28,531 bases of DNA from an uncultured archaeon (GTDB lineage: Archaea; Nanohalarchaeota; Nanosalinia; Nanosalinales; Nanohalalkaliarchaeaceae). The position numbers were made by a program, and so were the translations under genes. The notes beneath the pieces are model-generated. The model searched no databases. It had not been told where the DNA came from and was given only the letters and a program-made list of their open reading frames with translations. Of the stretch, positions 8,100 through 25,776 are shown one piece after another (position 1 is the first letter of the stretch; every line of letters starts with the position of its first letter). The stretch is taken from positions 2,836-31,366 of the forward strand of contig CAZAFX010000002.1 of the NCBI GenBank assembly GCA_964484895.1, given 5' to 3'.

Positions 8100-8205
8100 C
8101 GGGCCCGGCGGGATTCGAACCCGCGACCTAGCGGTCTTCCTCGGTGCCGCCACCAGCGGCAGGCGGTAGGAACCGCTCGCTCTGTCCGGGCTGAGCCACG
8201 GGCCC
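8100..8205 (-). tRNA. tRNA-Arg(CCT) with 31-nt intron (8136-8166) at position 37/38
   Basis: GGGCCCG/CGGGCCC acceptor, GCTC/GAGC D stem, AGCGG/CCGCT anticodon stem, spliced loop TT-CCT-AA, GCGGG-TTCGAAT-CCCGC T arm, G73. Confidence 0.9.
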
Positions 8206-25475: not shown

Positions 25476-25612
25476 GGCAGACAGTCTGCGGGGGTAACCA
25501 GCTGGCTTGCCAACCCCCGTACCACCAGGGGCAAGCCGCGGCCGGCGATCTGTCAACCAGATTGCCAGCCAGTTGCGGGGATCGGAGACCCGTACCGGGT
25601 CTTCTCGGTCCC
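25476..25612 (+). ncRNA. Unassigned structured RNA upstream of tRNA-Leu(TAG): pseudoknot plus two hairpins
   Basis: ATAAAA box at 25450-25455; 8+8-bp pseudoknot, 9-bp hairpin and 15-bp hairpin; G:U pairs favour the plus strand. Confidence 0.6.
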
Positions 25613-25625
25613 AGCACGGACACAT

Positions 25626-25776
25626 GCGGGGGTAGCCAAGTGGCCAAAGGCGCAGGGCTTAGGTCCCGGACACCGGAACGCGAGTGACGGTGTGCGGCGA
25701 GGAAAATCCGCCAGGATTTTCGTTGGGAGATACCCTGTCCCGAAGGGGTTCGCAGGTTCAAATCCTGTCCCCCGCA
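25626..25776 (+). tRNA. tRNA-Leu(TAG) with 68-nt intron (25664-25731) at position 37/38
   Basis: First 30 nt identical to tRNA-Leu(GAG); CAGGG/CCCTG anticodon stem, spliced loop CT-TAG-GA; the spliced length of 83 nt equals that of the other tRNA-Leu. Confidence 0.92.

Follow-up and report, generated by a model that had tools for sequence, protein, structure and literature searches.

A gene-less cassette of 138 nt lies between the promoter and the gene of an intron-containing tRNA-Leu(TAG) in the window, the whole 28,531-nt stretch of archaeal DNA analysed here. The cassette is composed of three structured modules in the order A-B-C, and a partial copy of the tRNA 5′ end stands at the start of each module or directly next to it (Table 1). 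The minimum free energy of the stretch 25476–25625 was −72.9 kcal/mol, compared with −58.1 ± 3.8 kcal/mol for shuffled sequences (z = −3.9), and none of 200 shuffles reached a value as good. Taken together with a second copy that is 93% identical and with phylum-wide recurrence accompanied by covariation, this value places the structure in the window beyond chance.

Direct reading of the sequence confirmed the structural description of this stretch given in an earlier sequence-only reading, namely the promoter box, the two stems of a pseudoknot and its loops of 8, 1 and 9 nt, the ACCACCA at 25521–27, two further hairpins (one of 9 bp at 25544–66 and a long one at 25578–25612) and a possible alternative pairing of 25499–507 with 25567–75. 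The start of tRNA-Leu and positions 25488–25506 are identical at 16 of 19 positions. The interpretation built on this description was partly supported. Its proposal of an undescribed pseudoknotted element with a tRNA-Leu-like 5′ strand was borne out: the Rfam 15 covariance models gave no family for 25476–25625 at the gathering cut-off or at E ≤ 10, tRNA being the sole family matched. The module A pseudoknot is absent from Rfam and from the literature searched and is apparently undescribed.

Table 1. Features of the cassette and of the tRNA-Leu(TAG) gene, in window coordinates
Feature	Position	Strand	Basis and remarks
TATA-like promoter box ATAAAA	25450–25455	+	Direct reading; ~33–40 nt 5′ of the upstream tRNA-start copy
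Upstream decayed tRNA-Leu start copy, positions −1 to 19	25487–25506	+	17/20 versus 25625–25644; holds the 5′ strand of S1
Module A, H-type pseudoknot	25488–25537	+	Covariance model R2, 54.6 bits
S1, GCGGGGGT with ACCCCCGT	25488–95 with 25513–20	+	Direct reading
Conserved S1 core of module A	25490–95 with 25513–18	+	
S2, GGCTTGCC with GGCAAGCC	25504–11 with 25530–37	+	Direct reading
Conserved S2 core of module A	25506–11 with 25530–35	+	
Loop 3 of module A	25519/21–25529	+	
Module B, two overlapping hairpins	25545–25574	+	Covariance model R1, 48.6 bits
Module B, hairpin (a)	25544–52 with 25558–66	+	
Module B, hairpin (b), loop and 3′ strand with CCAGTTG tail	Tail 25569–75	+	Weakened in the window copy
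Module C	25575–25625	+	tRNA-start copy GCGGGGA 25575–81, hairpin 25582–25608, tail ending ACACAT
tRNA-Leu(TAG) gene, intron in the anticodon loop, no encoded CCA	25626–25776	+	Rfam RF00005, 46 bits; ARAGORN intron mode

The host genome assembly comprises 191 contigs that total 1.19 Mb, its GC-content is 67%, and its crude set of long ORFs, spurious frames included, has a median pI of ~5. For comparison, 70 genomes of the phylum, here represented by a single order, were used (0.5–1.7 Mb; 28 of high quality; individual genomes are denoted by G numbers, the host being G000). The single order and the genome sizes of the phylum, the GC-content of the host and its median pI suggest that the host belongs to the Nanohaloarchaeota. 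Absences of modules in this set are soft, since it includes many incomplete MAGs. In the host, archaeal RNase P RNA was matched over its full length at G000:C86:4085–4490 (− strand); with 56.9 bits this match scores below the Rfam cut-off of 84 bits, and the RNase P RNA of this lineage therefore looks divergent. According to ARAGORN, a tRNA-Arg(TCT) gene with an intron adjoins this candidate.

Module A, a phylum-wide pseudoknot family specific to tRNA-Leu

Old and phylum-wide in distribution, the module A family is specific to tRNA-Leu. In each unit of 50–60 nt, a copy of nucleotides 1–15/19 of tRNA-Leu is followed by an insert that pairs back to the copy; the parts follow one another in the order tRNA-Leu nucleotides 1–15, a spacer of 4–6 nt, CTTGCCAA, a C-run, a loop of 10–25 nt and GGCAAG. 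Copy and insert fold as an H-type pseudoknot with an A-rich third loop. The covariance model (E ≤ 10−4) recovered 35 copies, distributed over 23 of the 70 genomes (roughly one third), and 12 of the 28 high-quality genomes carried the module, as did complete single-contig genomes. All 24 copies with downstream sequence available lay 5′ of a tRNA-Leu gene, mostly at a distance of 3–12 nt and in one case of up to 217 nt. In most copies of other genomes, a TATA-like 8-mer starts 36–47 nt 5′ of the module.

The sequence-only reading had proposed that the element is co-transcribed with the intron-containing TAG gene. A promoter box upstream of the element is suitably placed for co-transcription, but the tie to this particular gene did not hold, as module A was found before all five tRNA-Leu isoacceptors (that is, with all five anticodons represented downstream of its copies), whether or not the gene has an intron. 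In the host genome, the second copy of the stretch 25476–25625 is carried by a different contig, where it has other flanks and a separate TATTAAAA box. This paralogue precedes an intronless tRNA-Leu(CAG) gene, and its first 20 nt repeat the start of that gene at 20 of 20 positions. The host tRNA-Leu genes with anticodons GAG, CAA and TAA are without module A.

Covariation was assessed in 29 copies of module A aligned to a model that knew S2 only, with S1 outside the search model. In the stems, 94.9% of the cells were paired (94.4% in S1 and 95.3% in S2), and six of the 12 pairs, three in each stem, changed on both sides; these pairing and covariation values were reached by none of 500 shuffles, a statistic that overstates independence because the copies are related to one another. 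With slid partners as a control, pairing fell to 35–64%. Module A is an H-type pseudoknot, with two crossing helices that are conserved and carry compensatory changes. The covariation and conservation in relatives on which the sequence-only reading had made its pseudoknot depend were thus found for S1 and S2 alike.

Most of the changes in S1 follow the local tRNA acceptor (GCGAGGG/CCCTC, GCCGGGG/CCCCG and GCGGAGG/CCTCC). The upstream copies of G034 and G019 are unlike the local tRNA, and the insert nonetheless compensates. An exception is G047, where the C-run fits the real tRNA better than the decoy, which counts against the reading preferred below. The insert core matches the reverse complement of tRNA-Leu nucleotides 1–15 at about 12 of 15 positions, which suggests that module A may have originated in an old inverted duplication.

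Across three families, S2 hardly differs in sequence, in contrast to the diverging loops. Such conservation exceeds what pairing or insulation alone would need and hints at recognition by some factor. With a junction of 1–2 nt, S1 (6 bp) and S2 (6–8 bp) could stack coaxially into a helix of ~12 bp. Loop 3 consists of 53% A and 8% G, and an A-rich, G-poor third loop resembles those of pseudoknots in which loop 3 lies in the minor groove of stem 1. The likeness of module A loops was 0.81 within genomes versus 0.56 between genomes (95th percentile 0.71).

The element had also been read as an acceptor minihelix with a discriminator A and an encoded CCA, and this part of the interpretation failed in the comparison. 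Loop 3 varies freely and is A-rich: its sequence is ACCACCA in the window copy only, ACCAACA in the paralogue and unrelated, though A-rich, elsewhere, so that the discriminator A and the CCA-CCA belong to the window copy alone. Among the copies, the first two pairs of the presumed acceptor helix mostly do not form, and the discriminator base is unconserved. Module A therefore lacks the conservation from pair 1 onward, of the discriminator and of the 3′ CCA, that would characterize a tRNA-like or aminoacylatable minihelix.

Modules B and C and the turnover of the cassette

Module B is a 32-nt double hairpin with the consensus GATCTGC CAACTGG ATCG, 0–4 nt, CCAGTTG, and 21 copies of it were found in 17 genomes. 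Hairpin (b), which was outside the search model, has three of its seven pairs changed on both sides, a result that none of 500 shuffles reached. In the window, module B borders at its 3′ end on the next tRNA-start copy. Elsewhere, this end lies flush with +1 of tRNA-Leu, tRNA-Ser or another tRNA in some copies; in antisense copies it meets the canonical intron site of tRNA-Met or tRNA-Arg, and in others it lies next to tRNA 3′ fragments. Two introns contain the module in sense orientation. Module B thus occurs in introns of tRNA-Met, tRNA-Arg and tRNA-Thr as well as in leaders. Exact scans for its core motif in viral contigs and in JGI metagenome contigs gave no matches in either set.

Three loci of module B outside tRNA leaders had features of their own. 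At L158 (G005:C20:4652–4682, − strand), the module is flanked on both sides by diverged copies of the final 23 codons of a protein gene (FVRFGF...HP*); of these, the upstream one shares the reading frame of the gene, and the downstream one starts right after the module B motif. At L042/L132 (G001:C81, ~1040–1340, − strand), a row of tRNA 3′-end pieces, including a copy of the T-arm and acceptor, lies 3′ of tRNA-Gly(TCC), and a 12-nt micro-helix, GCGG AGG CCGC A, comes right after the module B copy. At L140 (G028:C2, ~1350–1590), a tRNA-Thr(TGT) intron of ~170 nt contains module B in sense orientation, followed directly by the C-box-like GTGATGA, with CTGA near the start of the intron; this intron could be a circularly arranged C/D guide RNA.

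The tRNA-start copy of module C spans 6–7 nt, and its hairpin is conserved at the base but variable and covarying at the tip. In G025, G037 and G013, a hairpin of this family likewise comes after a short copy of the tRNA-Leu start and lies upstream of module A; hence, module order varies among genomes. Similarly, G007 has module B upstream of module A (B-A), as opposed to A-B-C in the window. In many genomes module A stands alone before tRNA-Leu, at a gap of 3–12 nt, and module B occurs alone at varied sites. The alternative pairing of 25499–507 with 25567–75, which had been put forward as a regulatory switch, would bridge modules A and B, two independent modules, and it is not conserved: the paralogue retains eight of the nine pairs, G018 lacks the helix, and G007 has the two modules in the opposite order.

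Filled and empty sites were found at orthologous loci of related genomes. Within one genus, the tRNA-Leu(GAG) locus consists of a plain promoter and gene in G027, has one hairpin insert with an 8-nt duplication in G058, and carries an insert of the G058 type together with module A in G013. At the locus of G001 that is syntenic with the window, with the same M24 peptidase gene upstream, modules A and C are missing, and a diverged B-like hairpin is all that is present. Because such filled and empty sites exist in sister genomes, gain and loss of the modules are directly open to study.

The duplication of the tRNA start amounts to 17 of 20 positions in the window, 20 of 20 in the paralogue and 25 nt, native leader included, in G025. 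A second G025 locus carries the leader of the first locus inside its insert, which indicates that the unit was copied between the two loci. Module A forms tandem arrays with a period of 56–58 nt in G007 and G014. Among the 52 tRNA genes of the host genome, 5′ copies were found upstream of three and 3′ copies downstream of three, compared with 0 and 1 in wrong-side controls.

Two further host loci have an architecture like that of the cassette, at other tRNA genes. A 17-nt copy of the start of tRNA-Ser(TGA) (G000:C3:10650–10730) lies 59 nt upstream of the gene with a 42-nt insert between, and a 22-nt copy of the 3′ end of tRNA-Pro(CGG) (G000:C47:857–950) lies 56 nt downstream.

Origin and role of the cassette

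On balance, the cassette is probably recombining or mobile tRNA-Leu leader DNA, tolerated or selfish, that insulates itself by its own fold and does not act as a sensor. The dedicated sensor or decoy suggested by the sequence-only reading fits less readily, since three separable modules that are variably present at orthologous loci suit recombining or mobile cassettes better. Transcription would start at the tRNA promoter, now located 5′ of the upstream copy, and the whole cassette would be made as a long 5′ leader, from which RNase P would release the tRNA by cutting at the true +1; the position of the promoter ahead of the upstream copy and the presence of a full-length candidate RNase P RNA point to such co-transcription and removal. 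The modules would pass from one tRNA-Leu paralogue to another and be gained and lost between relatives, possibly by recombination via the shared tRNA start or by another insertion process. Selection would hold the decoy 5′ strand and the C-run paired together, because either of them, if left free, would compete with the real acceptor stem in folding. Against this reading, no enzyme or insertion mechanism for the modules was found, and the strict specificity for tRNA-Leu, the occurrence at all five isoacceptors and the persistence in streamlined genomes of 1 Mb would fit a real function too.

Such a function is rather unlikely in our judgement. Module A would then be a tRNA-Leu-specific RNA, either a mimic of the acceptor/T arm acting in cis on the maturation of pre-tRNA-Leu or a stable small RNA. 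A single strand would exit the ~12-bp stack of S1 and S2 where the 3′ tail of a tRNA would; in cis, one possibility is that the module gives RNase P or tRNase Z an entry or timing site, and in trans a released small RNA might bind a factor that handles tRNA-Leu. A functional RNA would account for a phylum-wide family in which both stems covary, for the near-invariance of S2, for a loop 3 that is A-rich and G-poor as in triplex-forming pseudoknots, for the exclusive association with tRNA-Leu genes of all five anticodons, and for the suitably placed promoter and the persistence in very small genomes. It is harder to reconcile with the absence of module A from two thirds of the genomes, complete ones included, and from some tRNA-Leu genes of carrier genomes, such as the three in the host, as well as with gain and loss between congeners, tandem arrays and the lack of conservation of the CCA, the discriminator base and pairs 1–2. 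Also missing from module A is the long variable arm, a known identity element of archaeal LeuRS that Soma et al. reportedly described in 1999.

Two kinds of tRNA-like RNA bear on a possible role as a mimic. TYMV-type viral tRNA-like structures have a pseudoknotted acceptor arm, and the pseudoknot of module A could give a coaxial helix of ~12 bp resembling the acceptor/T arm. The 5′ processing of Haloferax volcanii 5S rRNA reportedly uses a tRNA-like element (work by Hoelzle et al. in 2008), and by analogy a tRNA-like fold within a precursor could recruit tRNA end-processing enzymes. Module A, in contrast, is without a free 3′ CCA end and without aminoacylation identity elements, and its top two pairs are unconserved.

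The duplicated tRNA starts might alternatively be attL/attR scars left by pNOB8-, pTN3- or SSV-like elements that integrated in the 5′ half of tRNA-Leu and were later mostly deleted, with the conserved motifs as arm sites. This is improbable, although direct repeats of tRNA ends do flank the inserts (15–25 nt elsewhere), module B is always on one side of the repeated piece, and in one case a diverged duplicate of a 23-codon gene end recalls attP-borne gene ends. A precedent exists in Caldiarchaeum subterraneum, where the 5′ fragment of tRNA-Thr(GGU) is split from the gene by a recombinase element and lies 1.8 kb upstream of it (Sugahara et al. 2012, PMC3293823). Nevertheless, the inserts measure 40–140 nt and contain no genes, no integrase adjoins any copy, and no second tRNA-Leu fragment occurs within ~10 kb upstream of the tRNA-Leu(TAG) copy of G018. 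Duplication lengths vary (0, 6–9, 15–19 and 25 nt), and the targets of module B are diverse. Moreover, compensatory changes indicate base pairing rather than protein half-sites, and independent deletions would not yield the same 40-nt insert at ~35 sites.

Very improbable is a non-canonical D-loop intron, in which the upstream copy would be exon 1 and be spliced to the matching position of the downstream copy. The promoter does lie at a normal distance from the upstream copy, the host genome is rich in tRNA introns, and module B occurs inside true introns as well. However, at positions 10, 14 and 15 the upstream copy in the window carries A, G and C in place of the G, A and G of the gene, and A14 varies hardly at all among tRNAs. 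Other upstream copies show D-arm insertions, deletions and substitutions, and their downstream counterparts remain canonical. This drift at near-invariant tRNA positions identifies the upstream copy as leader rather than exon. Att scars and a D-loop intron both fit the data less well than mobile leader DNA or a functional RNA.

Two other candidates were considered and set aside. As judged by eye, the cassette has no pseudouridylation pocket, K-turn, or C or D boxes of an H/ACA or C/D box guide RNA, and an IS200/IS605 end or TnpB guide-RNA scaffold would leave the target duplications unexplained.

Returning to recombining leader DNA, several known systems are comparable. The cassette shares with the Caldiarchaeum tRNA-Thr locus a partial 5′ copy upstream of an intact gene, foreign DNA between the two and a locus state that varies among relatives; att duplications made by SSV, pNOB8 or pTN3-type integrating elements are likewise comparable. 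It differs in being 40–140 nt long and gene-less instead of 1.8 kb with a recombinase gene, in having a module A that is specific to tRNA-Leu and present at ~35 sites, and in its conserved, covarying pseudoknot, which uses the duplicated piece as one strand. For Thermoproteales, PMC4090602 summarises an unexplained transposition of introns among tRNA genes (Fujishima 2010), which resembles our case in that near-identical short non-coding sequences occupy different positions of different tRNA genes. The Thermoproteales cases are BHB introns only, in contrast to module B, which is found in leaders flush with +1, in introns in both orientations, at tRNA fragments and at one protein-gene end. Neither PMC3293823 nor PMC4090602 contains a gene-less 40–140-nt cassette with a conserved pseudoknot in which the duplicated tRNA start forms one strand.

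The modules share with MITEs, REP/BIME and RPE a small size, a folded structure, multiple copies, the lack of genes and a presence that differs among relatives. Unlike these elements, they have long and variable target duplications, and module A is restricted to a single tRNA family. Inspection of the aligned module copies by eye revealed no terminal inverted repeats. A 2026 survey of archaeal transposons mentions SINE-like repeats and nowhere tRNA (PMC13343696).

A broader proposal, speculative and as a whole rather doubtful, would make modules A, B and C a new class of self-insulating structured mini-cassettes of DPANN archaea. All of its points would have to hold jointly: the modules would enter tRNA genes precisely where RNA processing sets its boundaries (at the RNase P site, the canonical intron site and the D-loop) and would rebuild the interrupted end; movement would be RNA-linked or of a fold-back type, with leaders, introns and orphan fragments as outcomes of one process; and the pseudoknot before tRNA-Leu would in addition have been recruited to mimic the acceptor arm during the maturation of pre-tRNA-Leu. 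If true, this would amount to a living source of archaeal tRNA introns.

For the origin of archaeal tRNA introns, splits and orphan fragments, the known cases are kilobase elements or come without any mechanism. The locus in the window is part of one compact system, whose folded modules of 30–60 nt are shared by 5′ leaders, introns and the neighbourhoods of tRNA fragments. Module A itself is a clean candidate for a new RNA family, in which a duplicated tRNA start becomes a strand of its own fold.

tRNA annotation and the intron of tRNA-Leu(TAG)

The annotation of such genomes is affected, as tRNA finders and promoter calls will set the 5′ ends of tRNA-Leu genes at wrong positions. In the window, the default mode of ARAGORN overlooks two intron-containing tRNA genes that were found by Rfam, at 8100–8205 (− strand) and 25626–25776 (+ strand). 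With introns allowed, ARAGORN called introns in well over half of the host tRNA genes, and several very long ones look spurious.

The intron of tRNA-Leu(TAG) occupies positions 25663–25733 of the window and contains a hairpin, GAAAATCC GCCA GGATTTTC, and a tail, GAGATACCCTG. Both the hairpin and the tail are kept in the orthologous introns of G018 and G001, and the hairpin bears a likeness to the first hairpin of module B.
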